Of a stretch of 64,000 nt of DNA, positions 808 to 60,188 are shown one piece after another. Both the position numbers and the translations under genes were made by a program. The stretch lies in NCBI GenBank assembly GCA_039802605.1, contig JBDRWW010000005.1, positions 47,462 through 111,461 on the forward strand, in the 5' to 3' direction. This DNA is from a candidate division WOR-3 bacterium (lineage in GTDB: Bacteria > Hydrothermota > Hydrothermia > LBFQ01). Under the pieces are notes generated by a model, which saw only the letters and a list, made by a program, of their open reading frames with translations, was not told the origin of the DNA and ran no database searches. The stretch's first letter is position 1; the number at the start of each line of letters is the position of its first letter.

Positions 808-1478
808 CGGGGCCTTAAATATCTCTTTATGTCCATTTTTTGGGACAACACCGCTATTGTCGTCGGCATGAGCCAAATTATTGATATGTCCGTGGAGGTA
901 TATCCGTAAAATAGCCATAAGAAAAACCATATTTCGGATACCGCATATATTCCAAAGGCTATAAACCTTATGGTCCATGCCCTATCGTAAAATGCGGGTG
1001 GGAATATGAGTATGGTGTTTAAAATTCCGAGGAACATATACAATATGTTAAAAAATGTGCCAATCCTTGAAACAAAAGCGGGTTCAATTTGGACGGCCAG
1101 ATAATACGATACAAAGGGTGATAAAAGCAATAGTATAAATATCAACATCAAATACACCCTTGACCCCTCATTCCACATATACCAAGCCGAGCCGGTAAAG
1201 AACATAAGGTAAGCACCCATATACAATGCATCGGCGATGTAGTAAAACTCTTGGGGTAATTTAAAGGAATTTATAAGGGAGTATAGGGCAAGGAATAAAA
1301 AACCACCAGCCCAGACCCTTTCAAAAACCCTACCCTCAACAAAAGTTATAAAGGAAGATATTAGATAAACAAGCGTTCCCATTTGATATACATAGTTTTC
1401 GCTTATCTCCCTCATATAAGGTGAAACGGCCATGGCGGTTATCACAAAAATCACAAATACACCCTTAAAAACCCTCAT
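804..1478 (-). CDS. Hypothetical polytopic membrane protein
   Basis: 224 aa, about 7 hydrophobic segments, ATGA overlap with upstream gene. Confidence 0.75.
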   Translation of the reverse strand: MRVFKGVFVIFVITAMAVSPYMREISENYVYQMGTLVYLISSFITFVEGRVFERVWAGGFLFLALYSLINSFKLPQEFYYIADALYMGAYLMFFTGSAWYMWNEGSRVYLMLIFILLLLSPFVSYYLAVQIEPAFVSRIGTFFNILYMFLGILNTILIFPPAFYDRAWTIRFIAFGIYAVSEIWFFLWLFYGYTSTDISIIWLMPTTIAVLSQKMDIKRYLRPR

Positions 1479-4400
1479 CTTATTACCACAAACCTTGTAA
1501 AGTTTTTCACCTTTTCTTCCCGCGTTTTAGCCTCTACAAGGGCAACATATATCCCGTTTGAGAGGGAGTTTATCGGAACATTTAAGGAGTTAAAGCCCGG
1601 TGGGAGGTTCATAAAATACCGTTCAATGGCCACTTTACCCGTAGGCGTGTATATCCTTAACCTTACATCGGCGGATTTTGTCAGTTTAAAGGTTATGTAA
1701 AAATTACCACCCCTATAAGGGTTTGGGTATGTCAAAAGGTCAAAAACCCTTAAAGAATCCGAAACGAAGTTTAAATCCCAAATGTTATACCCCCTTATAC
1801 CTTTTGCGGATGTTATTGATACGCCTATCCTATGGGTTCCCGGGGATGTGGAAAAATCAAAATCGTAGCTCGCTTCCGCCAAGGTATCGTTTAAAATTTT
1901 CACTTCCAAAACATCGGTAAAGGAATTGTCTATTATAATTCTTGGGGGTGAAGCGTTGTCCCCACTTGTCCTTATATCAAACCCCTCGTGGCTAATAAAT
2001 TGAAACCTAAGGGTTGTTTTTGCGGGTAAATTCATCCCGTTTCTTAAACCCTCATCCTTATAAAAGCCCAAAACCTTAGGCCTTTCCGTTCCGATTGTGG
2101 AATCGGCATAAGATATAGGGTATAACCCCGCATAACCCCTATCCCCCTTCCACCACAAAAGGCTTGCCTTTTGCCAAGCGGATGTATCGGAGGATATATG
2201 CCCGCGAAATGGTATCCAAAACCCAATCGTATCCCCTTTTACATCCCCGTAAAACATAACTGTCCTTTCCGAGTAGTAAGGGTACTTTACGCTTAAACAG
2301 GTAAATGAAACCGTATCAATATCCGGTATATCAAGGACCAAGAATTTACCATCTTCCGGTATTATTGCCGAATTTTTCGCCCCCCTACGCAGAGTATCGG
2401 ATATTAAAGGCCCAACACTGTCGGGGAATTTAAGCATTATCCCGGGATCCCCTAGGAGAACATAATACCTATCGTTTTTACCAACAAGGGAAAGGTATCC
2501 CAACGGCGTTTTACCATAAGTGTTCAGATAAGAGTATATAGCCCGTGCGTACAAAGCGTTGTTTCCCGCATATGCCAAGGCCGTGGTTGATAAAACCGCT
2601 ATTCCCCTGTTTTTATGCAACATCATCTCCTCACCCAATACATGCTCGGGGTCCAACCTATCATAAGCCCCCACCTTACAAGACAAAACCGTAATAAACG
2701 GTTCTCTACCCCTTGTGTTTAGTTTTGGAACATCGTCTAAGGTAAATAATCTCTCGTGGGCCATTTGGCTGGGATTTCCGTGTATAAAGAAGCTAACCAT
2801 CAGGACACCGGAGTTTAAAATCCTTATTAAATCCCTAGTGGCCTTAGGTTTTGTGTATCCTTCAAGGGGATAATTTTGTAAAAGAAAGGGGATCGTGTTT
2901 ATCCTTGGGGATAGTTGTGGTCTAACGGTATATAAAACATCGTATGTATGGAATATTTCGCAAGATGAAGGGCTATCGCTCTTCTCGTCATCGGCAACCA
3001 GCATAATCCTATAACGCCAAAAACCATCGTTTATAAGGCTTTCGTATTCAATAACCTTGTTTATATATTCCGCAAGTTCCGTGTTATCCCTTACGGGTAT
3101 TCTCCCAATACCTATATCGGAATAGTAATCGCCATCGAAATCACCGTAAAAATCGTCATAAGCACCAAAGTTATCGAGATTAACGGATAAACTGGAATCA
3201 ATGGGATAATATGGGGGAACTTGCTTTGGGAAGTAATTCTGGGTAAATCCCTTATAATCGTATGTTCCATCCCCAACGAGAACGGCATATAAAGGTTTGT
3301 TTCCACCACTCCTTAAAAAAATGTTATACAAAAAGTTCCTTATAGCCACGGGATCGGGATTTCCCAAAGAGAACTGGGTATATATGTCTTCAAGGTTTAT
3401 CCACAAAACGGTACCTACGGAATACTCCCAATTTCTACCGTTAAAAACCGGTATCCTGTTCCTTCTAAAATTTAGGAGTTTCCAAAATGTCCCGGAAAAC
3501 CCTTTATTCCCTATTGCCACATAATCGGGGGAGATGTTGTACAAATCTTGCGACAAATCTATCAACTCAATGGATATAGGTCTCCTCGCAAAGTTTGATA
3601 GGTATATCTTAGTCCAACCGTTTGCCGAGTCGTTTATGAAAAGGTTCCCCGAGGAATAAGTATAACTTTCAATTATTTTGGGATTATACGGGTCTGATAC
3701 ATCCCATACAAACACGGGCCTATTACCCTTTAAATTTACCGTAAATTTCCCCGAAGCGTTTATAAAGAAAATGCCCTCATTTCCATAAGAGCCGGTTGAT
3801 ATGTATGAAACCTGATAGTAGTCCAGGTATAGGGTTTGGGAGCCACCAGAGGGTTTTATAACATAATCAACATTGTTGTTTTCGGACAAATTGGGGATGC
3901 AGGTTATGGTACGGTAGTTCCTTGGTAAAACCCCAATGGAATCGCAAATTTGACCGTTTATTCTTACAACAACGGATGTTATACTATCCGAGAATTCACT
4001 ATTTGCTATCCTTGTTCTAAATTCAACTCCGGATAAAACATCGTTCAATGCAAAGCCGTATGTATAAACCCTCTCGGGGTCGGATGGGTTTCTCGTCATC
4101 TCCCTTCCAACCCAGACCCTCCCCTTTTTTCCGGGGTTGTTTATGTTCTCCTCAAACCTGTAAAACTTAACGGGTTGGGCATAAGGACCCGGAGATGCGG
4201 TTATTATCCCCATTCTTCCACCTACTTCCCCACCAATACCCAAAAAATAATAGGTGGTATCGGTATAAGGATTTTCAAAATAGACAACATTCCCGTTTAT
4301 TATCCTGAAACCCTTTTGAGATTCACCCCAGAAAAGGACCCTTCTCCCGGCTTCATCAATCCAAATGGGAACTTCATATTTTTGGGGAAATGCGGAATCC

Positions 4401-4888
4401 AAGGGCGATTTAAGGGTATCAAGGAGGGCTATCATTTTAAGGGTTTGCAACGGATAAGAATTTATGTTTATGCCAAGTTTTTCTATCTCCGAAAATGGGA
4501 TTTCGTATATTCCGCTTTTTGTTATTTTAACCTTTATCCAAACTTCGGATTTTGAAAAGGGGTTTTGGGGAGCGCTTTGGGGTCTAAATACCAGGTATTC
4601 CACCCATTCCTCTTTGGGATTTAAAACCGAGTTTAAAATTATATGAGTCCTAAAATCCTTAATCTTTGAGGGTTTAACCTTTGGCTCGGGGAATACCACT
4701 TCAACCTTCCCATCCTTATAGGCCTTTATTTCAACATACCTAACCCCAAAGGAATAACCTTCTCTATGTTCGCACTTATTACAAATAACGGTGTAGGAAA
4801 CCTTTGGCGGAATTTGAACTTTAAAGGTTTCATATGGCTTACCTTTAAGGGAAACTTCAAATGAGAAGTTTGAAATAATCCATACCAT
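1475..4888 (-). CDS. porU: C25 (gingipain) family cysteine peptidase, PorU/T9SS sortase-like, with C-terminal sorting-type domain
   Basis: ENPYTDTTYYFL, DPVAIRNFL, LVGDGTYDYK, IGRIPV, catalytic His (FIHG) and Cys (LSC); C-terminal TYPNP...IYTPTGK...LSNGIY. Confidence 0.8.
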   Translation of the reverse strand: MVWIISNFSFEVSLKGKPYETFKVQIPPKVSYTVICNKCEHREGYSFGVRYVEIKAYKDGKVEVVFPEPKVKPSKIKDFRTHIILNSVLNPKEEWVEYLVFRPQSAPQNPFSKSEVWIKVKITKSGIYEIPFSEIEKLGININSYPLQTLKMIALLDTLKSPLDSAFPQKYEVPIWIDEAGRRVLFWGESQKGFRIINGNVVYFENPYTDTTYYFLGIGGEVGGRMGIITASPGPYAQPVKFYRFEENINNPGKKGRVWVGREMTRNPSDPERVYTYGFALNDVLSGVEFRTRIANSEFSDSITSVVVRINGQICDSIGVLPRNYRTITCIPNLSENNNVDYVIKPSGGSQTLYLDYYQVSYISTGSYGNEGIFFINASGKFTVNLKGNRPVFVWDVSDPYNPKIIESYTYSSGNLFINDSANGWTKIYLSNFARRPISIELIDLSQDLYNISPDYVAIGNKGFSGTFWKLLNFRRNRIPVFNGRNWEYSVGTVLWINLEDIYTQFSLGNPDPVAIRNFLYNIFLRSGGNKPLYAVLVGDGTYDYKGFTQNYFPKQVPPYYPIDSSLSVNLDNFGAYDDFYGDFDGDYYSDIGIGRIPVRDNTELAEYINKVIEYESLINDGFWRYRIMLVADDEKSDSPSSCEIFHTYDVLYTVRPQLSPRINTIPFLLQNYPLEGYTKPKATRDLIRILNSGVLMVSFFIHGNPSQMAHERLFTLDDVPKLNTRGREPFITVLSCKVGAYDRLDPEHVLGEEMMLHKNRGIAVLSTTALAYAGNNALYARAIYSYLNTYGKTPLGYLSLVGKNDRYYVLLGDPGIMLKFPDSVGPLISDTLRRGAKNSAIIPEDGKFLVLDIPDIDTVSFTCLSVKYPYYSERTVMFYGDVKGDTIGFWIPFRGHISSDTSAWQKASLLWWKGDRGYAGLYPISYADSTIGTERPKVLGFYKDEGLRNGMNLPAKTTLRFQFISHEGFDIRTSGDNASPPRIIIDNSFTDVLEVKILNDTLAEASYDFDFSTSPGTHRIGVSITSAKGIRGYNIWDLNFVSDSLRVFDLLTYPNPYRGGNFYITFKLTKSADVRLRIYTPTGKVAIERYFMNLPPGFNSLNVPINSLSNGIYVALVEAKTREEKVKNFTRFVVIR

Positions 4889-13274: not shown

Positions 13275-14431
13275 AGGGGATTTTGTACTATCCTTACAAG
13301 GCTTTAACTGTTAAAAAGATCTCATTGGCCTTTATATGGGTCTTGATAGGGGCGGTTTTGTATTCTTCATTTACATATTTGGCATATTATGTGTCGGGTT
13401 TGGATTTATCAAGGGTTTGGGAGATAAACGGTTTATTCCCCATACCCATATGGGCTAAAACCTTTCCAAAATACTTGCCGGAAAGGGGGGGAAATGTGCT
13501 ATTCCCCACGGATTTTGAGGTATTCAATTTTTGGGGAAAGGTTCTTTGGTTCTTAGGAGTTTATGGGGTTATATATTCATACTTTTCGGCGGGCATAGGG
13601 ATTTCAAGGTTTGTTATAGAGGAGGAAAGGGGAGACCCTTTTTATCCATTTTTGGATGCCTTAAAGGAATCGTTTAAAAAATCCGGCCTCTTCATAACAT
13701 CAACCCTAACCGTAATTTCCTCTTTTGTAATAGTGATTATAGTTCATCTGTTGATTTCGCTTTGGGGGAATTTTAAAGGTTTGGTTTATTTAACAGGTGC
13801 AGTACTGATCATTGTTTTTCCGTTTTTGGTTGTTTTGAGCGCCCTGTTTTTATACCTGATTTTGGGATTTTTGAGCGTTGTAATCTTTGGCCCCGTAGTT
13901 TCCACATCAATGGAAGGGGATACATTTGACCTGTTTTATGAAGGCTTCACCATTTTAAACGAGAGATTGGTTAAGGCCATATTTTTGGAAGGCATAAACT
14001 TTGCGGTTAAAATTTTCTCATTTTCCCTGTTTTCATATGTGTTTTTAAGGGCGGTGTTGTTATCTTTAAAAATTTTAACCCTTATATCCCCAAGGCTGAA
14101 ATTCATCCTTTATTCAAATATAGACCTCGTTTCCTTTCCACAACTCCATCCCCTACTATCGCAATACTTTGCCTTTATCATACCCCGTGAGTTTTTCGTT
14201 CCCATCGCCACCCCCATACCATCACCGCTTACAAATACATTTTCTATCGTATTTTCAGTCTGGTTTTTTGTTTTTATGTTTGTATGTTCGGCGGTTTATG
14301 TAAGCCTTACTTGGACGGGTAGAACATATGTTTATAGGGAAATGGTTAAGGATAAAGATGGCTTGGATATATTTGCAATAAAACCAAAATTGCTAAATTT
14401 CAAGGTTGAGACCCAATCCCAAACCGAATAG
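13271..14431 (+). CDS. Hypothetical polytopic membrane protein
   Basis: 386 aa with several TM segments; GTGA overlap with pyrB. Confidence 0.75.
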   Translation: MKGILYYPYKALTVKKISLAFIWVLIGAVLYSSFTYLAYYVSGLDLSRVWEINGLFPIPIWAKTFPKYLPERGGNVLFPTDFEVFNFWGKVLWFLGVYGVIYSYFSAGIGISRFVIEEERGDPFYPFLDALKESFKKSGLFITSTLTVISSFVIVIIVHLLISLWGNFKGLVYLTGAVLIIVFPFLVVLSALFLYLILGFLSVVIFGPVVSTSMEGDTFDLFYEGFTILNERLVKAIFLEGINFAVKIFSFSLFSYVFLRAVLLSLKILTLISPRLKFILYSNIDLVSFPQLHPLLSQYFAFIIPREFFVPIATPIPSPLTNTFSIVFSVWFFVFMFVCSAVYVSLTWTGRTYVYREMVKDKDGLDIFAIKPKLLNFKVETQSQTE

Positions 14432-15967
14432 CGTATTTATTTTCCTTTCTTCTTTGGTTTTACCGTTTATAGCCTTTGATATTTCGGATAACTTAATCCT
14501 TTCGGCGGAAATCATCAAAATCCAAGGGGTATCCTTATACTTGTAATTTAAAGATGTTCTCAGGGATGCGGGGTTTTTACCCCCTTCGTTTAGTATTCCT
14601 ATGCCCATAGCGAGTTTTAAGGATTTATAGGTGTATAGCCCTTCAAACCTAAGCCTCTCATATCCCCCCAAAAATGCTATGAACCTTACAAAGGGTGCTC
14701 CCAAACCCATCCCAAAGGAAGAATTCTTTACGACATAAAGCGTTGTATTCCAAAACATTAAATCAACACCTAAGAATGCCTCCATCCTATCATCGGGGGT
14801 TAAGGTGTTATCACCGTAGAGGAAGTTGTCCGCGTAACCCCTCACAAAATATACACCAAATTCAACCGTTCTCTTCTTCTTATAAACGCTGCCAATATTT
14901 ACAGGCTTGGGAGCTTCAACGCTTAAAGTTTCCCCTTTTCCTTTATCCTCTTCGGACTCTGTGGATTCTTCGTAGGTTTCTTCTTTTGCGGTGGTATCTT
15001 TCTCCTCGGGGTTCAAAAGTTTTTCAACGGTTTCCTTATTATAGTTATCGTCAAACAGGGATGGTTTGAGTTTATAAGCGGTGTTGTATTCCCTTTGCGC
15101 TATCTTGTAAGCATTATACTTATAGGCCAAGAATCCGTAAAAGAAATGCCCTTCGGCGTAATTTGGGTCTATTTCTATGGCCTTTTGGGCGTGGGTTATA
15201 GCCTCGTTGTAATCTTCAAAGAAGAGGGCCTTTATCAAACCCCTTCCCAGTTCCTCATAAGCCTCATACATATCCGTACCCGCATATTTTCCTTTGAAAC
15301 CCCTGAGATCCACCTTCCTCAAAACCTTTTTGACAACATGCGTGGGTACGGCATAAGATATCGCTTCCCTGCCGCCTCCCTCTTTGGCAAACACAACTCC
15401 AATAACATCCCCATTCCTATCAATCAAAGGCCCCCCACTATTTCCCGGATTTACACTCATGTTTAAGGCAATGGGATTTGCATTTTTATCGGAGGCCACA
15501 AACCCAAACATAACCTTTAATTCGTTGTCATGATAAGATGTTCCCGGATATCCCAGGGCGGCTACCGGTTCCCCCTGGTTCAAGGTTTCCCTTGAAGAAA
15601 GACTTATGGTTGGAAAATTCTCACCGGTAATCTTTAAGACTGCGATATCGTTATCCGGGTCATCGTATATAACCTCCGCAAAGTATAACCTATCAACCAA
15701 CTCTTTAAAGTTTGTAGCAGTAGGACCGTTTAACAAAACCGCTATTATCTTACCCGACCTTATAACATGACTATTGGTTATTATTGTACCGTTTTTATCA
15801 ACAAAGAAACCAGAACCCGTTGATACATTCCAATCCGCGACCACATCCCCAACGGATCTGAGTTTTGGCAAACCAAAGGATATTATCCTGATCACGGCAT
15901 CCTTTTTGTCCTTAGTTAATAGCGCATCCCAATTGGGTAAAGTTATCTGTCCTAAAAGCATTAGCAT
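14393..15967 (-). CDS. Trypsin-like (S1C/HtrA-type) serine protease with TPR, acidic linker and beta-strand-rich C-terminal domain
   Basis: GSGF, TNSHV, DIAVL, GNSGGP catalytic triad; AIEIDPNYAEGH TPR; ends LFGLGLGLNLEI. Confidence 0.85.
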   Translation of the reverse strand: MLMLLGQITLPNWDALLTKDKKDAVIRIISFGLPKLRSVGDVVADWNVSTGSGFFVDKNGTIITNSHVIRSGKIIAVLLNGPTATNFKELVDRLYFAEVIYDDPDNDIAVLKITGENFPTISLSSRETLNQGEPVAALGYPGTSYHDNELKVMFGFVASDKNANPIALNMSVNPGNSGGPLIDRNGDVIGVVFAKEGGGREAISYAVPTHVVKKVLRKVDLRGFKGKYAGTDMYEAYEELGRGLIKALFFEDYNEAITHAQKAIEIDPNYAEGHFFYGFLAYKYNAYKIAQREYNTAYKLKPSLFDDNYNKETVEKLLNPEEKDTTAKEETYEESTESEEDKGKGETLSVEAPKPVNIGSVYKKKRTVEFGVYFVRGYADNFLYGDNTLTPDDRMEAFLGVDLMFWNTTLYVVKNSSFGMGLGAPFVRFIAFLGGYERLRFEGLYTYKSLKLAMGIGILNEGGKNPASLRTSLNYKYKDTPWILMISAERIKLSEISKAINGKTKEERKINTLFGLGLGLNLEI

Positions 15968-16601: not shown

Positions 16602-18230
16602 TTAATCAAATTTTCCCGGAGAGTAAAGGCTCTTGTAAATCCAATAGCCCTTCAAAACCCTCCTGACATAAGCACGGGTTTCGTTGTAGGGTATAATATC
16701 AATGAATAGGTCGTAATCAAGTCTTTCATACTCGTAATCGCAAAGCCATCCGTTCAGCGCTCCCATACCGGCGTTATAAGACGCCAAGGCCAAAGCGTAA
16801 TCGGGGAAAACCCTTAAATATTCCGAAAAAACCCAGGCTCCAATTAAAAGGTTTGTCTTCGGGTCGTATGGATCTTTAATCCCCTTTTTGAACTTCCTTG
16901 AAAATTTTTTAACCTTGTCGGGCATAATTTGGGATAAACCCAAAGCACCGGCTGGGGATTGGGCTCTAACCATAAACCTACTTTCTTCCCTTATTAATGC
17001 TACAAATAAAAGGGGATCTATACCAAAGGTAGTTGAAGCCGAATCGATGTAATGGGAAAAGAACTTCTTGTTATAGGGGTAAGCGAGCTTTCCCCACCAC
17101 AAGGGAATCCCCTCACTTTTATCGGAAATGTCATATATGTACTGCAATACAAGGGAAGCCCTATAAAAATCCCCACTTTTCAGCAAATCCTTTAAATGCT
17201 TGTAAGCCGAGGGGATGTTTTTCAGGTAAAAATCCCTTGCGTATTGATAACCTGCGATTTTTTCAACAATTTTACCCATCTCGTAAAATCTGGTATCCCC
17301 CAATGTATCCCATAAGGCACCTTTCGACCATTTTGGCTTTATTCCCAGTTTTAAGGAATAGTAATTTAAAGGATCCTCACTTTTTATTATGCGAACATAA
17401 TAGGTGTCCCGTGTAATTTTGTATAGCCAAAAAGCCGCCCGAATCCTGTTAAAATCGCCATAACCGCCTTTACGAAAGGCCATATAAAGGTAGTTATAAG
17501 CATCCTCTATGTATCCCAAAATGTAAGCGGAAATACCCAGCCATACCAAACCATCCGATTCGGTGTTTTCATCAGCATAGGATTTTAATAGAGAAAATAG
17601 CCTGTAACCCAAATGTTTCATATCGGGTTTGGCCACTTCCGAGGCCATAAGTCTGAATGCCCTTTCTTCGTCCCCTATATCCGCCAAAACCTTTAAATAA
17701 ACCTCTATTGAATCGTAAATTTCATCGGTTAGGGCTTTTATCAAAGGTTTCACTATATATCCTCTCAAATACCATTTGGGGAGTTTAAGCATTTCGTCAA
17801 GGGTTAGGTCTGTAAATTTGCTCTTTGCTACAAGATAAAGGGAATACTCGTTTTCCTTTGTGGTATCGGCATACTTAAATACGCTATCGTAAAGTTTGTG
17901 GTCGAGGAATACGCGCAATTTGTTATAGTTGTCCAAAAGGGGTATTGCCTTCAAAGAAAACGGGTAATATGGGTATAACTTTGCGAGTTTAATTAGGGAA
18001 GATGTATCGGCGAATAATTCGTATTTGGCTTTTAAAACCTCGGGTATTTCGGGGCAAAGGGTGTAGTCGGTTTTAACACCTTTAAGGGCAATAAATTTAC
18101 AAGACAATGTGCAAGGAGGGGTTGGATTATTGCAAACCTCCTTTAATAAACCGTACTCCCCCGCCTTTATCCTATCATAAAGTAAAAACCCCTCAATTTC
18201 GGGATATGAGGATATAAGAAATAAGCTCAT
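16602..18230 (-). CDS. Soluble lytic transglycosylase (SLT domain, helical N-terminus)
   Basis: IREESRF, SPAGALGLSQIMP, ASYNAG, IPYNETRAYV. Confidence 0.9.
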   Translation of the reverse strand: MSLFLISSYPEIEGFLLYDRIKAGEYGLLKEVCNNPTPPCTLSCKFIALKGVKTDYTLCPEIPEVLKAKYELFADTSSLIKLAKLYPYYPFSLKAIPLLDNYNKLRVFLDHKLYDSVFKYADTTKENEYSLYLVAKSKFTDLTLDEMLKLPKWYLRGYIVKPLIKALTDEIYDSIEVYLKVLADIGDEERAFRLMASEVAKPDMKHLGYRLFSLLKSYADENTESDGLVWLGISAYILGYIEDAYNYLYMAFRKGGYGDFNRIRAAFWLYKITRDTYYVRIIKSEDPLNYYSLKLGIKPKWSKGALWDTLGDTRFYEMGKIVEKIAGYQYARDFYLKNIPSAYKHLKDLLKSGDFYRASLVLQYIYDISDKSEGIPLWWGKLAYPYNKKFFSHYIDSASTTFGIDPLLFVALIREESRFMVRAQSPAGALGLSQIMPDKVKKFSRKFKKGIKDPYDPKTNLLIGAWVFSEYLRVFPDYALALASYNAGMGALNGWLCDYEYERLDYDLFIDIIPYNETRAYVRRVLKGYWIYKSLYSPGKFD

Positions 18231-22094: not shown

Positions 22095-22095
22095 G

Positions 22096-23806: not shown

Positions 23807-23816
23807 GGAGGGAAAA

Positions 23817-42500: not shown

Positions 42501-43038
42501 AAGGTTTAGCCTTAGGTTGGAAGACGATACGGGGTATGTGGATGCAGTAATATTTATAAACGATGACCCCAACTCCTTTGAAAAGAAGCTCTCCGAAAAC
42601 CTGGTATTATATGTTGAAGGTTTTGTTAGGACTTTGGAGGTTGAAGACGAAAACGGCGAGGAGGAGGTTAGCATAGAGATAAGGATAGATACCATAAACG
42701 ATGTTAAAACCGTTGACGAAATGCTTACACAGTTTTTGGAAAAAATAGACTTAAACCGGGCTTGGAAGGGCTATGTTATGAACATGAACGGATACACGGA
42801 TGAAATGGATATAAAGAGGGAGTTTGTAAGGTTTTGGATAAAGGAAATTGCGGGCGAGGAGTTCTCCACATCAGAAATACCGTATATGGAGGGCTTAAGG
42901 GTTATAAAAACGTTGAAAACATACGGCTCTAAAATTCTTGAAAATTCGGAGAACGACCCGATAAAAATGGGTGCGAAGGCCTTATTGTTAAAGGATATAG
43001 GTTTATGGCAGGATTTCCTTAGGAGGGTTAAGGGATGA
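39559..43038 (+). CDS. dnaE: DNA polymerase III alpha subunit
   Basis: HLHVHSEYSLLDG PHP domain, GRGSAAGS, PDVDID, FNKSHS, OB fold; start at MADFVH. Confidence 0.97.
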   Translation: MADFVHLHVHSEYSLLDGAARIDDLIKKAKELGFEALALTDHGNLFGAIEFYVKALEEGIKPILGMEAYIVDDLNDRSKRDYNHLTLLAMDERGWKNLIKLSSIGWTKGFYSKPRIDKKSLEEYSEGIIVLSGCPKGEIAQYILNDNYKKAYELIDWFKEVFKDRFFLEVQDVGIPENQKINTFLLEASKKTGLKLVATNDVHYINREDRHLQDILMCIAQGTKLTDEKRFRLSTEEIYMRTEEEMLNLFKDIPEAVKNTKLVAEMIDLKIEIDPQKLKLPLPPNVKEPFEDLKVKAYEGLRRKLNGNIPKEYEERLEYELEVIRNTGFAGYFLIIEDIINYCKNNGIMVGIGRGSAAGSLVLYALDITDVDPIKYGLLFERFLNPERVSPPDVDIDFEDRRRDEVIDYIRKTYGENSTAQIITFSKLKPRAALKDTARVYGIEFDEANRITKLVPNIPSDPITLKEAYETVEDFKKAVSNGKWKEIVENAIKIENFTRGVSVHAAGVVITPGEITDYVPLAVVKDRVVTQFDKNTLELLGILKIDILGLRTLSALSMAEKMIREIYDPNFSLKDIPLDDKKTFELLQQGKTMGVFQLESPAMRKLLMRLRPNHINDIIALNALYRPGPIQSGMVDEYIERKHGKPYDYEFEGLKPILEETYGLIVYQEQVMKAAQILAGFTPGEADTLRKAIGKKKKDLMDAMREKFINGAVERGYPKEKIEELWEKIEKFASYSFNKSHSVAYAITSFWTAYIKAHYPLVFYASTLSSFRTSGQQKFFDNAPLFISEMKESGIKIEPPDVNKSDVEFIIDKEQNKIIWGLGFIKSVGDSAAETIVNERRTRGPYKSLEEFSKRTKLNKRTLEGLAKAGAFRSITNLPKTKIIEYINFGKKITKGTSKDIFGIGKKLEGESGKEDFKTNLMMERESIGVYISENPFERYIKLRNSLGLPKISDLENYEDKRVGILGSLMYFSKKKFKNGTRFSLRLEDDTGYVDAVIFINDDPNSFEKKLSENLVLYVEGFVRTLEVEDENGEEEVSIEIRIDTINDVKTVDEMLTQFLEKIDLNRAWKGYVMNMNGYTDEMDIKREFVRFWIKEIAGEEFSTSEIPYMEGLRVIKTLKTYGSKILENSENDPIKMGAKALLLKDIGLWQDFLRRVKG

Positions 43039-44051
43039 TATTCCCCTTATGCTCGCCGTATCATCCGTTGTTCGGTTATCAAAACTGCGAAACATACTCC
43101 CTAACTTACTTTTACGATATACCGAGATTTACATACGAGAGGACGATAACATTTGAAAGCTTTTCAAGCTCAACGTTTACGGACATTTACACCTACAAAA
43201 CCGTTTACGATACCTTTGATTATCAAACCGTGGGCTTTAAATTCCATTCCCCCAATGTCGTAGGTGGGGCTTACACGGAAAGGATAAACATAAAGGAAAA
43301 CTATGCCTTCGGTTTTGTGGGGAGGTATAGGTGGTTTTCGGGTTTAATTTTGAAAGGGAAGAGAAACCCTTATGAGGAAAAGGCGTATTTTGTGAATTTT
43401 GATTACGGGAAGTTTTCCTTAGGCGGCGGGTGGGATAGGGGTTATAGTTTTGGGGGAAGTTTTGGGGATAAAATATTATTAAAGGGTTTGTATTATTCGT
43501 CTTATGATACCGTTTTTGGGGGAGGCTTGGGTTACAGGGGGGATAACTTTACGCTTTCGCTTTTGGGTGGCTACGGGTTTTTGACGGATTTCCTCTTATT
43601 CATCTCGGATTTTCAAGTATCGGGGGGATATAATCTAACTAAAAGGTTAAAAAATGGGTTTATAACATTGAAGTACGGGGATTTTACGGGTCTATCGCTC
43701 GTTTACGGTAAAAGGCCTTGGGGTGAAAATGAGTATATTGATAATCCTGAGGTTCAGGGCTTTATAAGTTTTAAAAACCCTTGGTTTTCCACATATCTCA
43801 AAGGTGTGTATTTAACCCAAAGGCTTGTGTATAGGATTGCCGGGGGTATTCAACTGAACTTTTTAAAGTTAAAAGAAATAGCGGAATTAAAACCGGTATT
43901 GGATACATATTATGAGGATAACGGAAACCTTTGGGTTAATGCGGGGGTAGAGGTGATATTTTACAAGGATTTGCGCATAGGAGCCTTTTACGATTATTGG
44001 AAAGGGGGGCAAACCATAGGGGTAAAAGTCCTTTGGAGGTTGTGGGATTGA
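43035..44051 (+). CDS. Hypothetical outer-membrane beta-barrel-like protein
   Basis: 338 aa with G/Y/F-rich amphipathic strands; ATGA overlap with dnaE. Confidence 0.65.
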   Translation: MIFPLCSPYHPLFGYQNCETYSLTYFYDIPRFTYERTITFESFSSSTFTDIYTYKTVYDTFDYQTVGFKFHSPNVVGGAYTERINIKENYAFGFVGRYRWFSGLILKGKRNPYEEKAYFVNFDYGKFSLGGGWDRGYSFGGSFGDKILLKGLYYSSYDTVFGGGLGYRGDNFTLSLLGGYGFLTDFLLFISDFQVSGGYNLTKRLKNGFITLKYGDFTGLSLVYGKRPWGENEYIDNPEVQGFISFKNPWFSTYLKGVYLTQRLVYRIAGGIQLNFLKLKEIAELKPVLDTYYEDNGNLWVNAGVEVIFYKDLRIGAFYDYWKGGQTIGVKVLWRLWD

Positions 44052-46503: not shown

Positions 46504-47785
46504 GTGGGTTTTTGCCTTAATTCTCCTTTTTTCGTGTAAAGGCGGGAAATTTCCCGAGGTTATAAGTTTTGGCGGTGAAGGTTATACGATAAAGGTTTAT
46601 TCAAAAAGTGGGGAATTAAAAGTTGGACTAAACGACATAATGGTTGAAGTGCAACCACCTGCAAAAATAGAAGAATTCTATTTATACATGCCTCCAATGC
46701 CCGGAATGCCGGAGATGAGAGCGTTTGCAAACATAAAAGAAAAGGGAAAGGGAATTTATGAGGGTAAGATTAGCATAAGTATGGAAGGCTCTTGGCAGAT
46801 AAGGGCTAAGGTTGACGGAAAGGTTTTAAAAAGGGATATAAACATACCTTTAAGAGGTGAAAAGCACATGCACGAGGGTATGGACATGGGAAATGTAATG
46901 GAATTGACCGCCGCAAAACTTGCGGCTTTTAATGTATCCACTTATAAGGTGGATACCCTAAGCGTTCCCGCAGTCATTTACGCCTCGGGAAGCATAAAAT
47001 ATCCCAAAAGTAAAACATTTATGATAACCCCGAGGTTTTCGGGTTATATAACCGAGATTTTTGTGGATAGGGAGGGTAGTTTTGTGGAAAGGGGTACCCC
47101 CCTCTTTGAGTTTTATTCCCCTGAGATTGTTAGGACATACGAGGAGTACATAAACGCGAAAGAAACCGGGGATAGCGTATCCTTGACATTGACTTTGGAA
47201 AAATTCTCAATATATGGAATATCCCCCGATGATGTTAAGGATACATTGGCGGTTTTTAGATCCCCTTCCTCGGGGAAGGTTTCAAAAGTAATGGTGGCTA
47301 AGGGGATGATGTTTTCCGAAAACCAAAGCTTATACGAGTTAGTTACGGGGAAAGTGTTTTACTTTGTGGGGGAAGTTCCACAGGAAAAGGCGAAGCATTT
47401 ATATCCGGGCTCTTTGGTGGAAATTGAGGGTATATACGCGAGGTTGGATAGGGTATTCCCAGAGGTTAATCCGGAAACAAAAACGATTAGGTTTATTTCG
47501 GTTTTTACAACGGAAAGGGATCTCTACGAAGGTATGATATTAACGGCCAAGATAAAGAGGATGGTTAAGGGGTTGTTTGTCCCGAAGGATGCCGTAATAA
47601 GGACGGGGACCGCCGATTTTGTTTATTTGAAGGTTCGGGATAACGCCTTTTTACCAAAAAGGGTTAAGGTTTTATCCGAAGTTGAAAACGGCTATATGGT
47701 AGAGGGCTTGAAGGTGGGAGATGAGGTTGTTGCAAAGGGGGTATTCTTCATAGATGCCGAGGCCAACCTTAGGGGGTTAAGATGA
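46484..47785 (+). CDS. cusB: CusB-like RND periplasmic adaptor with N-terminal YtkA-like Met-rich domain
   Basis: Lipobox LFSC, MPPMPGMPEM, HMHEGMDM, PRFSGYI, YSPE, VPKDAVIRTG, FFIDAE.NL. Confidence 0.85.
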   Translation: MKNIATKWVFALILLFSCKGGKFPEVISFGGEGYTIKVYSKSGELKVGLNDIMVEVQPPAKIEEFYLYMPPMPGMPEMRAFANIKEKGKGIYEGKISISMEGSWQIRAKVDGKVLKRDINIPLRGEKHMHEGMDMGNVMELTAAKLAAFNVSTYKVDTLSVPAVIYASGSIKYPKSKTFMITPRFSGYITEIFVDREGSFVERGTPLFEFYSPEIVRTYEEYINAKETGDSVSLTLTLEKFSIYGISPDDVKDTLAVFRSPSSGKVSKVMVAKGMMFSENQSLYELVTGKVFYFVGEVPQEKAKHLYPGSLVEIEGIYARLDRVFPEVNPETKTIRFISVFTTERDLYEGMILTAKIKRMVKGLFVPKDAVIRTGTADFVYLKVRDNAFLPKRVKVLSEVENGYMVEGLKVGDEVVAKGVFFIDAEANLRGLR

Positions 47786-50700
47786 AAATGGATAAATTAA
47801 TACGCTGGGTTTTAAATAATCCCTTTCTAACCCTAACTATAACGGCGTTTTTTGTTATATTGGGCTTTATAGCGGTTTATAAAACACCCCTTGACGCAAT
47901 ACCCAACATATCCGATACGCAGGTAATAATTGAGGCCAAGTGGGAGGGGCAAGACCCAACGACAATGGAAGATCAAGTGACATATCCCATAGCTTCCGCC
48001 ATGCTTTCCGCGCCAAAAACAAAGGCGGTTAGGGGCTTTTCGATGCCAAACAAGTCCTTGATATATGTCATTTTTGAAGATGGGACGGATATATATTGGG
48101 CCAGGAGTAGGGTTTTGGAATACCTTTCGGGAATAAGCCTACCGGATGAAGTTTCGTTAAGACTGGGACCGGACGCAACCGCCCTTGGGTGGGTGTTTAT
48201 GTACGCCCTTATTGATACATCCGGAAAAAACGATATATCCTTTTTGAGGACTTTTAACGATTTCTACCTACGATATAGAATACTTTCGGCGGATGGGGTA
48301 TCGGATGTTGCGAGCGTAGGGGGGTACTTAAAGGAATATCAGGTAGATATAGACCCTTATAAGCTCAGGGCTTACGGTTTAACACTAAAAGATGTTTTAA
48401 ACGCCGTTAAGGGTTCAAATATGCAAGGTGGGGGAAGGGTAATAGAGGTTTCCGAAAGGTATTATATGATTAGGGGTTTGGGTTATATAAAATCCCCGGA
48501 AGATTTGGAAAAGGCTGTTATAAAGACCGATCCGGAAACCGGGGCAAGTATAAAGTTGGGTGATGTTGCAATTGTCCAATTGGGGCCGGCATTACAGGAG
48601 GGTGCCGCCGATTTGGATGGGAAAGGGGAAGTTGTTGGGGGAATAGTCATAATGAGGGACGGGGAAAACGCTTTGAGGGTTATAAACAATGTTAAAAGGG
48701 TTTTAAGCGAAACCCCCCTACCCGAAGGCGTAAAGATCGTTATAACATATGACAGGAGCGAACTCATAAAGGAGGCGGTTAGCACCCTTTTTAATACCCT
48801 TATAAAGGAATCAATAGCCGTTTTAATAGTGGTTGCCATATTCCTTTTTACCCTAAGGGGTTCGCTACCCATAGTGGTGTTCTTGCCCTTGGCCCTCATA
48901 ATCCCTTACATATTTATATATGCAATGCGTATAACCACCAACATTATGAGCCTTGGGGGTATGGCTTTGAGCATCGGGGTAATGGTGGATGCGGGTATAG
49001 TAATGGTTGAAAATACTTTTAAACATTTTGAAAAAAATCCACCTAAAACATTTGGTGAGAGGTTGGAAATCGTGTATAAGGCCATATGCGAAGTCGCCCC
49101 ATCCATAATTTTCTCATTGGCAATTGTTACAATATCCTTTTTGCCCATCTTTGCATTAACGGGTGAAGAGGGGAGGCTCTTTAAACCCTTGGCTTTTACA
49201 AAAACATTGACAATGGCGGTTGCCACGGTCTTATCAATTACTTTAATGCCCGTTTTGATTTTATTAATCATTCCAAACAGGGTTAGGGATGAAACCCAAA
49301 ACCCCGTAAATGTAATATTACACAAACTCTACGAGCCCATATTCAACTCAACGATGAAATACCCTTATGTATTCATCGGTACATGGGTGGTGATGAGTGT
49401 TATGGCCTTTTTCATTTTGAAAAGAATCCCCAACGAATTCATGCCACCCCTTGAGGAGGGTTCCCTTTTGTATATGCCTTCATCCGTTGCGGGTGTCCCC
49501 CTTGACAAGGGTGTTGAAATTCTTAGAAAACAGGATTCAATTTTAAAAACCTTTCCGGAAGTTGAAAGGGTTTTTGGGAAGATAGGTAGGGCGGACAACC
49601 CAACGGACCCCGCCCCCCTTTCAATGATAGAAACAACAATCCTTTTAAAACCGGAAAAGGAATGGAGAAGGGGTATGACCTTGGAAAAACTCATCGGTGA
49701 GATGAACGAGAAATTACAATTCCCGGGGTGGGTGAACACATGGGGTATGCCCATAAGGATAAGGGTGGATATGTTATCAACCGGTATAAGGACGCCGGTT
49801 GGGATTAAGGTTTTGGGCAACGACCCTTATAAAGTTGAGAGTTTGGCCGTTGAGGTGGAAAGGATAATTTCGGGATTAAAGGAAACCCAAACCGCCTTTG
49901 CGGATAGGTCTGCAAAAATGCTCTATGTTGATATAATTCCCAAGAGGGAAAAGCTCGCGGAGTATGGTTTAAGCGTGTCGGATTTAACGGATATTATAGG
50001 TAAGGTTATAGGGGGTATGCCGATTGGCTATGCTGTTGAGGGGAGGGAAAGGTATCCCATAAGGGTTAGGTTGGCGAGGGATTTTAGAGACGAGGTTGAG
50101 GATATAAGGGATTTGGAGTTTATAACACCCACCGGTGCGGTTGTTAGTCTTGGCAGTGTGGCGGATGTTAATATATCACGGGCGCCATCAGAAATAAAAA
50201 GCGATAACGGTTTTATAGCATCGTATGTTTATGTGGTTCCAAAGGGGGACATTGGAATGGATAGTTATGTTGAGATGGCTAAAAAAATTCTAAAAGAAAA
50301 ACTAAAACTCCCTCCCGGATATTTCCTAGTATTCTCCGGGCAATACGAGAATCTCAAAAGGGCGCAACAAACTATGGTAATCATACTCCCAATAACGCTT
50401 ATAATTATCTTCATCTTGCTTTATATGAACTTCCGCTCTTTCTTTAAATCAATCCTTGTGATTTTGAGTGTTCCCTTCACACTCTTTGGTGCCTTTGGAT
50501 TAATGTATATCCTCGGATACAAAATGTCAATTGCTTCTTGGGTTGGAGTAGTGGCCCTTTTGGGTTTGACGGCGGAGTTGGGGGTTGTAATGATTATGTT
50601 TATGGATTTGGGATTAAAGGAACACCCATACGACCCATTAAAGGGTATATACGAGGGTGCCCTGAGGAGGTTGAGGCCCAAGGTTATGACGGCCACCACG

Positions 50701-50862
50701 ACATTTATATCACTTATTCCCATAATGTTTGAAACCGAAGTAGGTTCGGGTGTTATGAAGAGGTTGGCCGCTCCCATGATAGGTGGGGTATTTTTCGCGT
50801 TAATATTGGTTTTGGTCGTGTATCCGGCGATATATAGGGTAATCTACGGGAGGGGCAAATGA
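47782..50862 (+). CDS. cusA: CusA/CzcA family heavy-metal RND permease (Cu/Ag type)
   Basis: PLDAIPNISDTQV, GPDATALGW, GVMVDA.IVMVEN, EFMPPL.EG, DPAPLSM, R.RPK.MT. Confidence 0.93.
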   Translation: MKMDKLIRWVLNNPFLTLTITAFFVILGFIAVYKTPLDAIPNISDTQVIIEAKWEGQDPTTMEDQVTYPIASAMLSAPKTKAVRGFSMPNKSLIYVIFEDGTDIYWARSRVLEYLSGISLPDEVSLRLGPDATALGWVFMYALIDTSGKNDISFLRTFNDFYLRYRILSADGVSDVASVGGYLKEYQVDIDPYKLRAYGLTLKDVLNAVKGSNMQGGGRVIEVSERYYMIRGLGYIKSPEDLEKAVIKTDPETGASIKLGDVAIVQLGPALQEGAADLDGKGEVVGGIVIMRDGENALRVINNVKRVLSETPLPEGVKIVITYDRSELIKEAVSTLFNTLIKESIAVLIVVAIFLFTLRGSLPIVVFLPLALIIPYIFIYAMRITTNIMSLGGMALSIGVMVDAGIVMVENTFKHFEKNPPKTFGERLEIVYKAICEVAPSIIFSLAIVTISFLPIFALTGEEGRLFKPLAFTKTLTMAVATVLSITLMPVLILLIIPNRVRDETQNPVNVILHKLYEPIFNSTMKYPYVFIGTWVVMSVMAFFILKRIPNEFMPPLEEGSLLYMPSSVAGVPLDKGVEILRKQDSILKTFPEVERVFGKIGRADNPTDPAPLSMIETTILLKPEKEWRRGMTLEKLIGEMNEKLQFPGWVNTWGMPIRIRVDMLSTGIRTPVGIKVLGNDPYKVESLAVEVERIISGLKETQTAFADRSAKMLYVDIIPKREKLAEYGLSVSDLTDIIGKVIGGMPIGYAVEGRERYPIRVRLARDFRDEVEDIRDLEFITPTGAVVSLGSVADVNISRAPSEIKSDNGFIASYVYVVPKGDIGMDSYVEMAKKILKEKLKLPPGYFLVFSGQYENLKRAQQTMVIILPITLIIIFILLYMNFRSFFKSILVILSVPFTLFGAFGLMYILGYKMSIASWVGVVALLGLTAELGVVMIMFMDLGLKEHPYDPLKGIYEGALRRLRPKVMTATTTFISLIPIMFETEVGSGVMKRLAAPMIGGVFFALILVLVVYPAIYRVIYGRGK

Positions 50863-51956
50863 TTTTAATCCTCGCTTTAACACTTGATGATTATTTAAAG
50901 GGTGTTAAAAACCATCCGCAGATAAAGGGGTACGAAAGCGGTGTTAGGGTTTATTCCGGAAGGGTTATAACGGATCTTTTGCCACCAAATCCTACGCTAA
51001 CATATAACGCCATGTTTATGCCCGGCGCAATATCCTTAGACCAACCAATACCCCTTTCATGGCCTATAAAAACCCTTTCAAGCTTGGAAAACAAAAGGGC
51101 TATGGAATACCAATACTTAGAACTCAAAAACGAGTTCCTTTTTATGGCTATAAACTCATACCTTGATGCCTTGTATTTACATGAGAAAATAAGGGTTTTG
51201 GAGGAAATTTTGAAGAACCTACAAAGCGTTTATAAGAGCGTATCCGCCCTTTACAAGGTTGGGAAAATCCCGGAAAGTGAGTTAAAGAGGATAGAGGCAA
51301 AGATGAATGTAATTCGCGCCGATATAGAGGGGGCAAGGGGTGAATTACTTGGTAAAATGAAACTTGTGGAATACTTTTATGGAAAATCCGTTGATAGTTT
51401 GGAATTCCCACCCGTTGATACCCTACCCAACCTTGAAAGTTTGTTAAAGGATGTTGAGAAATCCCCTTACATCAAATCCCAATATCATGCAAAGCGCTCT
51501 TCAAATTACAACAGGCTTTCATCAATCCTATCTTTGGTCCCGGTTTTATCACCGGGAATCCTTTACAACAACGGTACGATGTCCTTTTCTATATCCTTTG
51601 AAATCCCCCTTTGGCTTCCCAAATATTTTGGGGATTTAAAGGGCTCCCAAAGCGAATACAAAATGCAAGAGTACATTTACCAAAGCGTTAAATTAAGGGT
51701 GAATTCGGAGGTTTATTCGGAATATGAGGCCTATGTCTCGTCTTTGGGCAGATTAAAATCCCTTGAAATGTCTTTAAAAGAACTTGAAAAGGCTTATTCT
51801 TCCGAACTCTCAAAGTATAAAACAACGGGCGCCGGTACGACGGATTACCTGTTTATTCAAAACGATATACTTGAAACCGAACTGGCGATAATAAAGGAAA
51901 AACTTGAAGTTATAAGGAGGATATATAGGGTTAAATCGCTTCTTGGAACTATTTAA
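50859..51956 (+). CDS. TolC family outer-membrane efflux protein
   Basis: LTLDD...NHP, two helical repeats (YKVGKIP...L, EIPLW, YKTTG...DYL); follows cusA. Confidence 0.85.
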   Translation: MILILALTLDDYLKGVKNHPQIKGYESGVRVYSGRVITDLLPPNPTLTYNAMFMPGAISLDQPIPLSWPIKTLSSLENKRAMEYQYLELKNEFLFMAINSYLDALYLHEKIRVLEEILKNLQSVYKSVSALYKVGKIPESELKRIEAKMNVIRADIEGARGELLGKMKLVEYFYGKSVDSLEFPPVDTLPNLESLLKDVEKSPYIKSQYHAKRSSNYNRLSSILSLVPVLSPGILYNNGTMSFSISFEIPLWLPKYFGDLKGSQSEYKMQEYIYQSVKLRVNSEVYSEYEAYVSSLGRLKSLEMSLKELEKAYSSELSKYKTTGAGTTDYLFIQNDILETELAIIKEKLEVIRRIYRVKSLLGTI

Positions 51957-58257: not shown

Positions 58258-58258
58258 G

Positions 58259-58783
58259 ATGATTTCCCCTTTAAGTTTTAACATTTTCATTACGGGAATT
58301 TTGCTCAAAGGAAATGATAACATACGGAGAATCCAAAGGGATTAAAAACGCCAACGCCGGAAAATCATCTCTATGGCCGAATACGACGAAATGATAAAGT
58401 TAAAACTTAGGAGTAATGGGGGTTTGGGTGCAAAATACGATTTTTTAAAGGATAGTTTAAAGGAATTCTCAATAAGTGTTGCCGTATTGAGATCGTATGA
58501 GGAGTTTTTTGGCCTTTCACCCTCTTAGTTGTACAGATTATCCATAAGGCCTAAAGTTAGAATATCCGTAGGTAATTTAAGGGTTTATGGCTTGGTGTTC
58601 TACCAACCGAGGATTGGAAAGTTTGAAGATTATCTGATTGATGCCACCCTTTCGGCAAACTTAATTTTATCTTCACGAATATCCCTACGAGTAGAAATAG
58701 CGGATAAATATACGAGTATCGTACCCGAAGGGGTAAAGAATAACGATGTTAAAACCCTATTGGGACTAAATCTATCGTTTTAA
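58259..58783 (+). pseudogene. DUF481-like outer-membrane beta-barrel, disrupted
   Basis: Fragments KGNDN / YGESKGIKNAN / EYDEMIKLKLR.NGGLG.KY / FYQP....EDY / PEGVKNND...GLNLSF, with frameshifts and TAG 58526-58528. Confidence 0.65.
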
Positions 58784-58859
58784 AAATAGACCTAAGCCTA
58801 AACCCAAAATCAAACCCGCAAACCATAGGGGAGCGAAGCACATTTATAATACCAGAATT

Positions 58860-60188
58860 ATGATACACATAATTATTTCTCAGTGCTTTACGGATTATGC
58901 TTGCGGTTCTTGGTTGATCTATCAGGGCTCTCAAAAGCATACGGGGTTTCAGGCTTTAAGGGGTTATTTGGACAGCGCGAGAACCGTAAAATGGACATCT
59001 TTAACGCATATCAATATTATTGCCGTTCCAACCGTTGGCGATGTTAATGGCGATGGGTTAAATGAGGTCTTAGTTATAGGTTCGGATACCCTATTCGTTT
59101 TAAGGGGGTCGGACGGAAGTTTATTATGGAAAAAGTATTTGGGGGGACACGAAGGTTCAACCCCCGCAATATACGATATAGATGGGGATGATTCCGTAGA
59201 AATCGTTATCGGAAAGTATGGAAGTGTATGGGCTTACCAGGTCATGTTTTTAATTCACCGGTAATAGGGGATGTAAATAACGATGGTTATACCGATGTGG
59301 TAATATTATCAACATGGGGAATTGTTGGCCTTGACACCTCGAGGATGTTCGTAATAAGGGGAGATGGAACCCCCATATATCAGGTGGATGCCCCAACCAT
59401 CGCCCTTTATTCATATGCTTCGCCTTTATTAGGGGATTTAAACGGTGATGGTTATAAGGAAATAATTACGGTTTATAGCGATGAGGATGCCGGTGGGGGT
59501 GTTGCTTGTGCTTACGATGGTCCTTCGGGTACAAACATTTGGTGTTCCACAATGGGATTTCCTTTAACATATATGGGGGCATCTTCATCGCCGGTAATAA
59601 CGGATGCCAATAACGATGGAAATCCAGATGTTATTGTATCCGAAGCGTATTCCAATTTATACATTTTTAGAGGTTCGGATGGATATACCCTATTTTCATT
59701 GTCCGGTGCGGGAAGGAATACCCCGGCATCTTGGGATATAGATAACGACGGAAACCGTGAAATAATAGTTCCGGGTGTTAGGGCTTATAGAAATGGGATG
59801 CTTATTTGGTATAAAAATAGCGGATGTAAGCAATAGTTCTATGGGTTTGGAGATTGTAGTAAGCGTGGATACCGGTTTGTTCGTTTTATCGTCTTCTGGG
59901 AGCATACTTTGGCGGGAACGTCCTATAACCACAATAAAAAATTCTTCTGTCGCAGATGTTGATGGAGATGGGTGTTCCGAAATTGTAGTCGTTGGAAGGG
60001 GTGTGGCAATTATAGACGCACCGGCCTCGGCCTGCGGTTATGTATGGGTTTCAGAAGGTATAACAAAACCAAAGAAGGGCAATTTAAGGATTTATAACAT
60101 ACTTGGGGCGGAGGTTGAAGGTTTTAAAGGTAAAGGTGTGTATTTTGTAAAGGAAGGTGGGAGGGTTTATAAGGTATTAAAGAGGTAA
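58860..60188 (+). pseudogene. FG-GAP repeat protein with T9SS-type CTD, two frameshifts
   Basis: D.N.DG..E loops across three ORFs (58860-59264, 59228-59836, 59775-60188); C-terminal IYNILG...GVYFV...KVLKR. Confidence 0.8.

Follow-up and report, generated by a model that had tools for sequence, protein, structure and literature searches.

A 64,000-nucleotide stretch of contig JBDRWW010000005.1 (assembly GCA_039802605.1), hereafter the window, derives from a candidate division WOR-3 bacterium and encodes envelope proteins that start with methionine and a few apolar residues in place of an ordinary signal peptide. These short hydrophobic N-termini are true, conserved starts, and N-termini of the same kind occur throughout the source genome, mostly on protein families that act outside the cytoplasm. 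In the reading that we favor, and regard as fairly probable, they are extremely shortened Sec/signal peptidase I (SPase I) signal peptides that are tolerated by a more easily opened translocon; export, cleavage, and a contribution of SecY are what we infer from the features described below.

Short Apolar N-Termini in the Source Genome

The source genome (G000, family f1) is a 1.65 Mb, 90%-complete assembly in 23 contigs, and every run that holds window DNA and has a stated habitat is a hot-spring or sediment metagenome. Its 1644 genes were predicted by our own crude gene caller, and the counts given here rest on that caller and on our own hydrophobicity rules. Methionine followed by at least four apolar residues occurs at 125 of the 1644 N-termini, compared with 217 of 8479 internal methionines. 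A strict set of 71 genes was defined by methionine plus 4–8 apolar residues, no later membrane helix, a maximum 12-residue hydropathy below 1.9, and an in-frame stop no more than 12 codons upstream; a stop within 0–12 codons thus holds for all 71 by definition. When samples of about 330–400 kb from five other genomes were run through the identical caller, the strict pattern proved far commoner in G000 (71/1644) than in two other genomes of the phylum, G020 (family f4; 1/363) and G101 (family f16; 2/373); the remaining samples gave 7/359 (G071, family f5), 1/339 (G019, family f3), and 5/328 (G069, family f18).

The initial annotation, made from the sequence of the window, had placed such N-termini on proteins that act outside the cytoplasm, and this concentration holds for the whole genome. 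In a Pfam scan of 60 of the 71 proteins (all but the window's three and eight short ones), with families sorted by hand, 46 had matches, to extracytoplasmic families in 29 cases and to cytoplasmic families in six; 10 were ambiguous, and one was a permease. The 29 extracytoplasmic matches include SurA, a LolA-like protein, a DsbA-like thioredoxin, cytochromes c, NosD, SCO1, two OEP (TolC) proteins, TonB receptors, subtilases, M23 peptidases, and type IX secretion system (T9SS) cargo. Among proteins with a Plug domain (TonB receptors), eight of nine lack an ordinary signal and one has one; the 19 matches to Por_Secre_tail, which marks type IX cargo, comprise about 12 with a short leader, one with an ordinary signal, five with an uncertain start, and one without a gene call; and all three Omp85 proteins have short leaders, including BamA (MLLGILVL↓Q, where the arrow, here and below, marks the predicted end of the leader). 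Lipoproteins keep ordinary signals: 71 lipoprotein-like N-termini have an n-region of the MKR type.

The logo of the strict set reads M-[LI]-[W/L/F]-[LIV]-[LI]-[L/S/A/G]; the third residue is Trp in 27/71. The typical leader lacks a basic n-region and consists of formyl-Met, 4–7 apolar residues, and Ser, Gly, or Ala as a small residue, after which Gln is frequent. For closer counts, eight proteins judged to be non-exported were removed (the permease, six that match cytoplasmic families, and one that matches no family), leaving a reduced set of 63. Lys or Arg occurs within the first seven residues in none of these 63, compared with 1101 of 1573 other proteins; Gln is found at positions 6–12 in 20/63, compared with 179/1573; and the residue that follows the apolar run is Ser, Gly, or Thr in 45/63. 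The few ordinary SPase I-type signals of this genome likewise end in A↓Q or S↓Q.

Measured against known classes of signal, the leaders share with Sec signals their location on extracytoplasmic proteins, as seen in the Pfam scan and in the Plug, Por_Secre_tail, and Omp85 sets. They lack the positively charged n-region, and also an h-region of ordinary length, as Met and the apolar run together span only 5–8 residues in 63/63. The lipobox Cys expected for SPase II is missing, save in the family of the window protein that starts at 43035 and about one other. There is no twin-arginine motif, as the leaders carry no Arg or Lys, and the genome does have a TatC gene. A type IV prepilin signal does not fit either: the leaders are uncharged, and no helix follows them (the latter by definition of the set).

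The starts themselves carry translation or promoter-like elements. A Shine-Dalgarno-like motif lies upstream of 33/71 genes, and in 28 of the 38 remaining genes a −10-like TAnAAT box lies 4–13 nt upstream, with a peak at 7–9 nt, compared with 4.5% of internal ATG codons. Throughout the genome, 941 genes have no Shine-Dalgarno motif, and 493 of them carry a TAnAAT box 4–13 nt before the start (for example, at 15968–15990 and 58835–58859), which points to leaderless mRNAs and suggests that they are widespread in this organism. An alternative genetic code was rejected: TAA, TGA, and TAG end 374, 262, and 120 long open reading frames (ORFs), respectively, and since all three serve as stops the code is standard. 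A hidden upstream leader was rejected as well, given that stops lie close upstream and that the DNA before the start often belongs to the gene in front.

Short leaders recur in independent assemblies across the genus, family, and order. DNA contigs from two other studies cover positions 14000–23999 of the window in 30/30 bins and differ by one indel only (18 nt, in the transglycosylase gene described below). RNA contigs from runs X19 and X20 cover 19/30 and 7/30 of these bins, and such contigs cannot show transcript starts. The possibility that assembly errors hide longer leaders, which the initial annotation had itself raised, is thus countered by independent assemblies and, for 14000–23999, by the contigs of other studies. 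As to relics of genes, which it had also named, two of its examples (58259 and 58860) lie in broken genes; intact ORFs that carry the same leader are present in many independent assemblies.

Orthologous Leaders, SecY, and the SRP Pathway

Comparison with the orthologs of relatives, a check proposed with the initial annotation, indicates that the short leaders are conserved and that orthologs in sister families carry ordinary signals in the same spot. The SurA leader has 7–8 residues in the window's family (MILMLLS↓Q), 9 in one sister family (MTWFLALLS↓Q) and 11–12 in another; elsewhere in the class it has 15–22 residues and contains Lys or Arg. Most SurA leaders are followed by Gln. Elsewhere in the phylum, SurA has ordinary signals as well as uncharged leaders of 9–15 residues. 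PorU leaders have 6–8 residues in the window's family and a sister family and 10–17 in the rest of the class. In paired orthologs from two other genomes, an ordinary signal about 5–19 residues longer occupies the same place, with, for example, S↓Q aligned with S↓Q, so that for SurA, PorU, and the paired orthologs the short leader is positionally homologous to an ordinary signal.

Uncharged apolar N-termini of any length occur in all sampled genomes except G101 (f16), which has a single one, and the distance to the first polar residue has a median of 8 in G000 and of 9–13 in G020, G071, G019, and G069. Judged by these N-termini, the trait thus marks the far end of a drift to short, charge-free leaders that runs through the phylum.

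The genome encodes SecA (978 aa), SecY (443 aa), SecD, SecF, a single LepB (223 aa), and TatC. The SecY gene lies outside the window (G000:C2:107320-108651), and the residue aligned to Escherichia coli I187 is Ala. I187 is a member of the SecY isoleucine ring (PMC2171872, in excerpt), so that G000 has a pore-ring substitution of the general kind found in prl-type SecY. The position is Ala or Ser in 14/14 genomes of the two families with the shortest leaders and Ile in 21/22 genomes of 12 other families of the phylum, in which the SurA signals read were ordinary. Five families were set aside from this comparison: f3 and f18 have Ala, f5 and f22 have Ile, and f19 has Val. Over all families, the residue is Ala or Ser in the two with the shortest leaders, Ala in two further short-leader ones, and Thr and Val in two more, which makes six families of the phylum that deviate from Ile. 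A SecY tree, in which the site's own column was left, implies at least five changes at this site. The other five ring positions are Ile in all 42 SecY sequences of the phylum, except that three genomes have Val at one of these positions. No change is seen at the plug residues that align with F64, F67, and G69; across the classical prlA positions considered (aligned to F64, F67, G69, I90, I278, S282, F286, and I408), variation was either absent or without pattern, and these were set aside as candidates.

In the excerpted text of PMC2171872, five prlA positions are named, and I187 is not among them. According to passages of PMC3518225 and PMC2585858, most prl alleles lie in the plug or pore ring and lower the threshold of signal hydrophobicity, and a passage in PMC13537251 states that super-active SecY often results from pore-ring substitutions. 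A change in LepB was rejected: an alignment of 15 sequences from the shortest-leader families with 15 others gave one lineage-specific column, in the cytoplasmic N-tail, and no difference near the membrane anchor or the catalytic boxes. The modified Sec/SPase system that the initial annotation had supposed thus finds no counterpart in the peptidase, and does find one in the lineage-specific pore-ring substitution of SecY.

To that modification the signal recognition particle (SRP) pathway may be added, which was not found in the whole class. The M-domain of Ffh (PF02978) scored above the cut-off in 14/14 control genomes and in 0/61 genomes from the class, of which several have a rated completeness of 100%. 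For the SRP54 GTPase domain (PF00448), strong matches occur in 95/151 genomes of the phylum, usually two per genome, and in none of the ten families of the class sampled by the phylum scan or of four other families; the class itself gave only weak P-loop matches. The weak match in G000 was rejected as a divergent Ffh, being RadA-like by its motifs as judged by eye. A tblastn search of G000 with same-phylum Ffh and FtsY gave a best E of 0.2, with a clear positive control, and the small SRP RNA model RF00169 had no match in G000. Genomes of the class measure 1.2–2.4 Mb and belong to hot-spring and other environmental bacteria; a missing SRP pathway would be remarkable by itself in non-symbiotic bacteria.

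Short-Leader and Other Genes of the Window

All eight N-terminal peptides listed in the initial annotation, and the in-frame stops that it placed upstream of four of them (TolC, PorU-like, transglycosylase, and 43035), are found in the window. Five of the eight have sound gene starts (50859, 4888, 18230, 15967, and 43035); the other three are a broken gene, a stub, and an ORF without a family (Table 1). Its statement that normal signals coexist with the short ones also holds, as illustrated by the YceI-like protein, the FG-GAP protein with an inner Met near 33835, and the lipoproteins.

Table 1. Genes of the window discussed in the text (positions in the 64,000-nucleotide stretch).
Feature	Position	Strand	Evidence and N-terminus
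PorU-like C25 peptidase with T9SS C-terminal domain	1475..4888	-	Pfam Peptidase_C25 5.5e-62 and Por_Secre_tail; leader MVWIIS↓NF
Lipoproteins	5611-5850 and 51949-53541		
Trypsin_2/TPR serine protease	14393..15967	-	Pfam; leader MLMLLG↓QITLPNWDA
SLT-domain lytic transglycosylase	16602..18230	-	Pfam SLT 1.5e-23; leader MSLFLIS↓SY
YceI-like protein, ordinary signal	18227..18814	-	Pfam YceI 1.4e-47; starts MKRMAILLALAPALVYA↓K
Small conserved ORF	20612..21049	-	No Pfam family; starts MLSLAFN
secD and secF	22241..24728	+	Pfam SecDF_P1_head, SecD_1st, SecD_SecF_C
FG-GAP protein, ordinary signal ending A↓Q	32225..33886	-	Pfam FG-GAP_3; starts MKRLYLIPVLICLWVWGLFA↓Q; inner Met near 33835
338-aa protein	43035..44051	+	No Pfam family; leader MIFPLC↓S, Cys conserved
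AcrB-type resistance-nodulation-division (RND) pump	47782..50862	+	Pfam ACR_tran 1.3e-202
TolC-like outer-membrane factor	50859..51956	+	Pfam OEP 1.7e-30; leader MILILA↓LTLDDYL
Probable broken DUF481 outer-membrane gene	58259..58783	+	Stub of 28 codons that starts MISPLS; an 84-aa C-terminal piece follows in a different frame
FG-GAP propeller gene, broken	58860..60188	+	Starts MIHIIIS↓Q; two frameshifts, three ORFs

The TolC start overlaps the acrB stop (ATGA); it is preceded by GGGAGG and, at a distance of 8 codons, by a TAG stop. Both the leader and the ATGA overlap are found again in relatives, where TolC starts with MIVILA, MILLLG, MITLIC, or MLLSILLA and the open frame often exceeds the match by only about 7–10 residues. 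The PorU-like gene has a TAA stop immediately upstream of its start; further along the window there are two separate nuoA-like (Oxidored_q4) genes within 6 kb of each other (5851-6222 and 11657-12010).

The protease start at 15967 has a TATAAT box 11 nt upstream, and its mRNA looks leaderless by this arrangement. Sister-genus orthologs (3/3) start with ML(A/L)(L/I)L(S/G)↓QITLPNWDA and have a stop 3 codons upstream, and contigs from two other studies span the start without change. The ATG of the transglycosylase gene overlaps the YceI stop codon. Leaders of SLT orthologs vary inside the family, from about 4 to about 22 residues, and an 18-nt insertion after 18220 (between 18220 and 18221) is present in DNA contigs of two other studies (runs X8 and X9) and in one RNA-library contig (run X19). 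With this insertion, which the sister species G002 also carries, the start becomes a GTG behind a TATAAT box, and the leader is still short.

The 338-aa protein at 43035 has AGGAGG upstream of its start, and its ATG overlaps the dnaE stop. It is confined to the window's family, having been found in G000 and 3/3 sister-genus genomes, which amounts to 4 of the 41 class genomes searched; the other two full-length orthologs start with (GTG)IFLPFC and (GTG)FFLPFC. A language model gave it a high score as an Omp85-like barrel; the likeness is weak and serves as a lead only. The beta-barrel character ascribed in the initial annotation to the ORF that starts at 21049 is unsupported, because no family was found for it. 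This small ORF is real: the two-ORF layout, in which it overlaps the end of an upstream gene ending in ...FGF, is kept in 4/4 genomes of the genus.

The stub at 58259 probably belongs to a broken DUF481 gene, because an 84-aa ORF (58529-58780) matches the C-terminal third of DUF481. In the neighboring FG-GAP gene at 58860, the start is plausible, with a TATAAT box 9 nt upstream, and the pieces align in order to intact paralogs of about 500 aa, of which g309 and g1530 have ordinary signals. The region 58200–60250, which holds these two broken genes, is mostly without a DNA match in three sister species (G002 among those checked) and looks like a decaying or variable spot. Elsewhere in the window, a P-type ATPase appears to be spread over three ORFs (E1-E2_ATPase, 44256-45167; a 97-aa piece, 45107-45400; Hydrolase, 45481-46089) and may be a broken gene, and 53551-56186 holds five tandem paralogs of about 141–187 aa with a near-identical N-terminus; the one scanned is a putative endonuclease of the Uma2 family.

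Interpretation and Relation to Known Systems

The minimal export signal proposed in the initial annotation is the best reading of these N-termini, since they are conserved true starts, stand on exported families, occupy the place of the orthologs' signals, and end in a small residue that is often followed by Gln. These features support the proposal; that the leader suffices for export and is cut there would be a step beyond them. Under the shortened-signal reading, the stub would enter the lateral gate of SecY as a minimal hydrophobic key. Being uncharged, it would not be held back at the inner face and could move inward to a point where LepB cuts behind the small residue. Such weak signals would be tolerated because the translocon of this lineage opens more easily, in a natural "prl-like" state brought about by Ala or Ser in place of one of the six pore-ring isoleucines (I187), to which high-temperature growth may add. 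The class-wide loss of SRP may have done away with a reader that competes for hydrophobic segments at the N-terminus.

Several points weigh against this interpretation. A leader of 6–8 residues is too short to span the membrane and falls below the hydrophobic-core lengths needed in E. coli. Some SLT orthologs are shorter still (MLLA↓LYPEI in one genome, MFIYAEVQGF in another), and leaders of 4–5 residues fit a nearly dispensable leader better than a recognized one. Export and cleavage are deduced from sequence. The link between SecY and the leader is a correlation only: five independent contrasts on the SecY tree gave three in the expected direction, none against it, and two without a difference (sign test, p = 0.25), two families with uncharged SurA leaders of 9–13 residues keep Ile at position 187, and the SecY of Aquifex aeolicus likewise has Ala there. 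Some families that lack SRP have ordinary SurA signals, and some that possess it have short uncharged leaders; SRP absence thus does not track leader length by family and provides a permissive context at most.

Three other explanations were considered. That the short N-termini are artifacts or products of decay, with starts mis-called through a hidden leader, recoding, or a frameshift, or with genes that are 5′-truncated relics, is largely refuted and very improbable. Two cited examples do lie in broken genes, the SLT 5′ end is polymorphic, and the gene caller took inner starts for several lipoproteins, giving false "short" calls; set against this are the stops 0–12 codons upstream with the preceding gene often occupying the sequence before the start, the use of all three stop codons, the ribosome sites or promoter boxes at the called starts, the intact ORFs with the same leader in many independent assemblies, and the presence in the set of BamA, SurA, and LolA-like proteins, which have a central role in building the envelope of model diderms. 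A different and unlikely possibility is that the stubs are vestiges: the translocase would open without a signal, cargo would be chosen by its mature parts or by a chaperone, and the leader might remain uncut, in a manner that would resemble E. coli prlA strains exporting signal-less precursors. The Ala or Ser in the SecY pore ring, the SRP pathway that was not found, and the SLT leaders, which go down to 4–5 residues and vary in length within one family, would suit such a state. The stubs are nevertheless strongly patterned (Trp at position 3 in 27/71, no charge, a small residue and then Gln), and those of the protease and SurA are nearly identical across genera, which together argue for selection on the leader itself; moreover, in the excerpted account of yeast prl alleles, these lower the threshold and a signal is still needed (PMC3518225).

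Improbable, and more so than vestiges, is a dedicated novel receptor or pathway that would read a Met-apolar-Trp-apolar motif, deliver these proteins to or through the inner membrane, and bypass classical signal recognition. The motif is sharp, has a rare Trp at a fixed place, and recurs in several families of the phylum, and if SRP is missing, another device for targeting membrane proteins must exist. On the other side, leader lengths form a continuum with ordinary Sec signals across sister families, the shared look of the cleavage site is not predicted by a separate pathway, and no candidate gene was found, none having been sought. Returning to shortened Sec signals, a broader statement can be made that is tentative and more doubtful than the reading itself: that a free-living lineage without SRP and FtsY, and with a "prl-like" SecY, has remodeled the initial step of export and exports most of its non-lipoprotein secretome, including BamA and SurA, by charge-free leaders of 6–8 residues, which would be the shortest natural signal peptides, so that the signal would be a minimal hydrophobic key and most of the targeting information would reside elsewhere.

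If these leaders work, they would lower the known minimum of a Sec signal, in that a basic n-region and a membrane-spanning h-region would be dispensable in nature, and there would be a natural system in which to test what a signal peptide minimally must do. Prediction tools that were trained on ordinary signals would probably classify about 70 proteins per genome as cytoplasmic, in which case the secretome and metabolism of a widespread uncultured phylum would be read with a bias. Two concrete leads are the pore-ring change in SecY and the missing SRP pathway. Full-text literature searches and the papers on WOR-3 and Caldipriscus that were consulted, supplements aside, mention neither ultra-short signals nor a loss of SRP in the phylum.

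The usual Sec signal has a total length of about 18–25 residues. The leaders described here resemble such signals in being N-terminal and apolar, in belonging to the same families, in placing a small residue before the predicted mature part, and in being accompanied by the same Sec and LepB genes. They differ in the lack of a basic n-region (0/63), in an apolar run of 4–7 residues, and in a whole leader of about 6–9, whereas canonical Sec/SPase I signals have n-, h-, and c-regions (PMC9360617, in part). In type IV prepilin (class III) signals the leader is also very short, but it is charged, has Gly at −1, is cut by a dedicated peptidase before a helix of about 20 residues, and is confined to pilins; here the leader is the sole apolar part and is found on all kinds of envelope proteins. 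The "Q-rule" of Bacteroidetes offers another likeness, as Gln often follows the predicted cut site, here in both short and ordinary signals (PMC5837995 and PMC10653852, in excerpt). According to the same excerpts (PMC5837995/PMC10653852), this rule does not hold across the whole Fibrobacteres–Chlorobi–Bacteroidetes (FCB) group, and the present case differs in being seen in a WOR-3-type lineage; the glutaminyl cyclase family Glu_cyclase_2 (PF05096) was not found in the 90%-complete genome, and an M28-type cyclase was not searched for. A functional parallel is provided by E. coli prlA and yeast sec61 prl alleles, in which precursors with weak signals are exported upon a change in the pore ring or plug (PMC3518225, PMC2585858, and PMC2171872, each in part), as one pore-ring Ile is naturally Ala or Ser here. 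Those alleles are laboratory mutants assayed with single defective precursors, whereas in this lineage a whole secretome would depend on the putative state.

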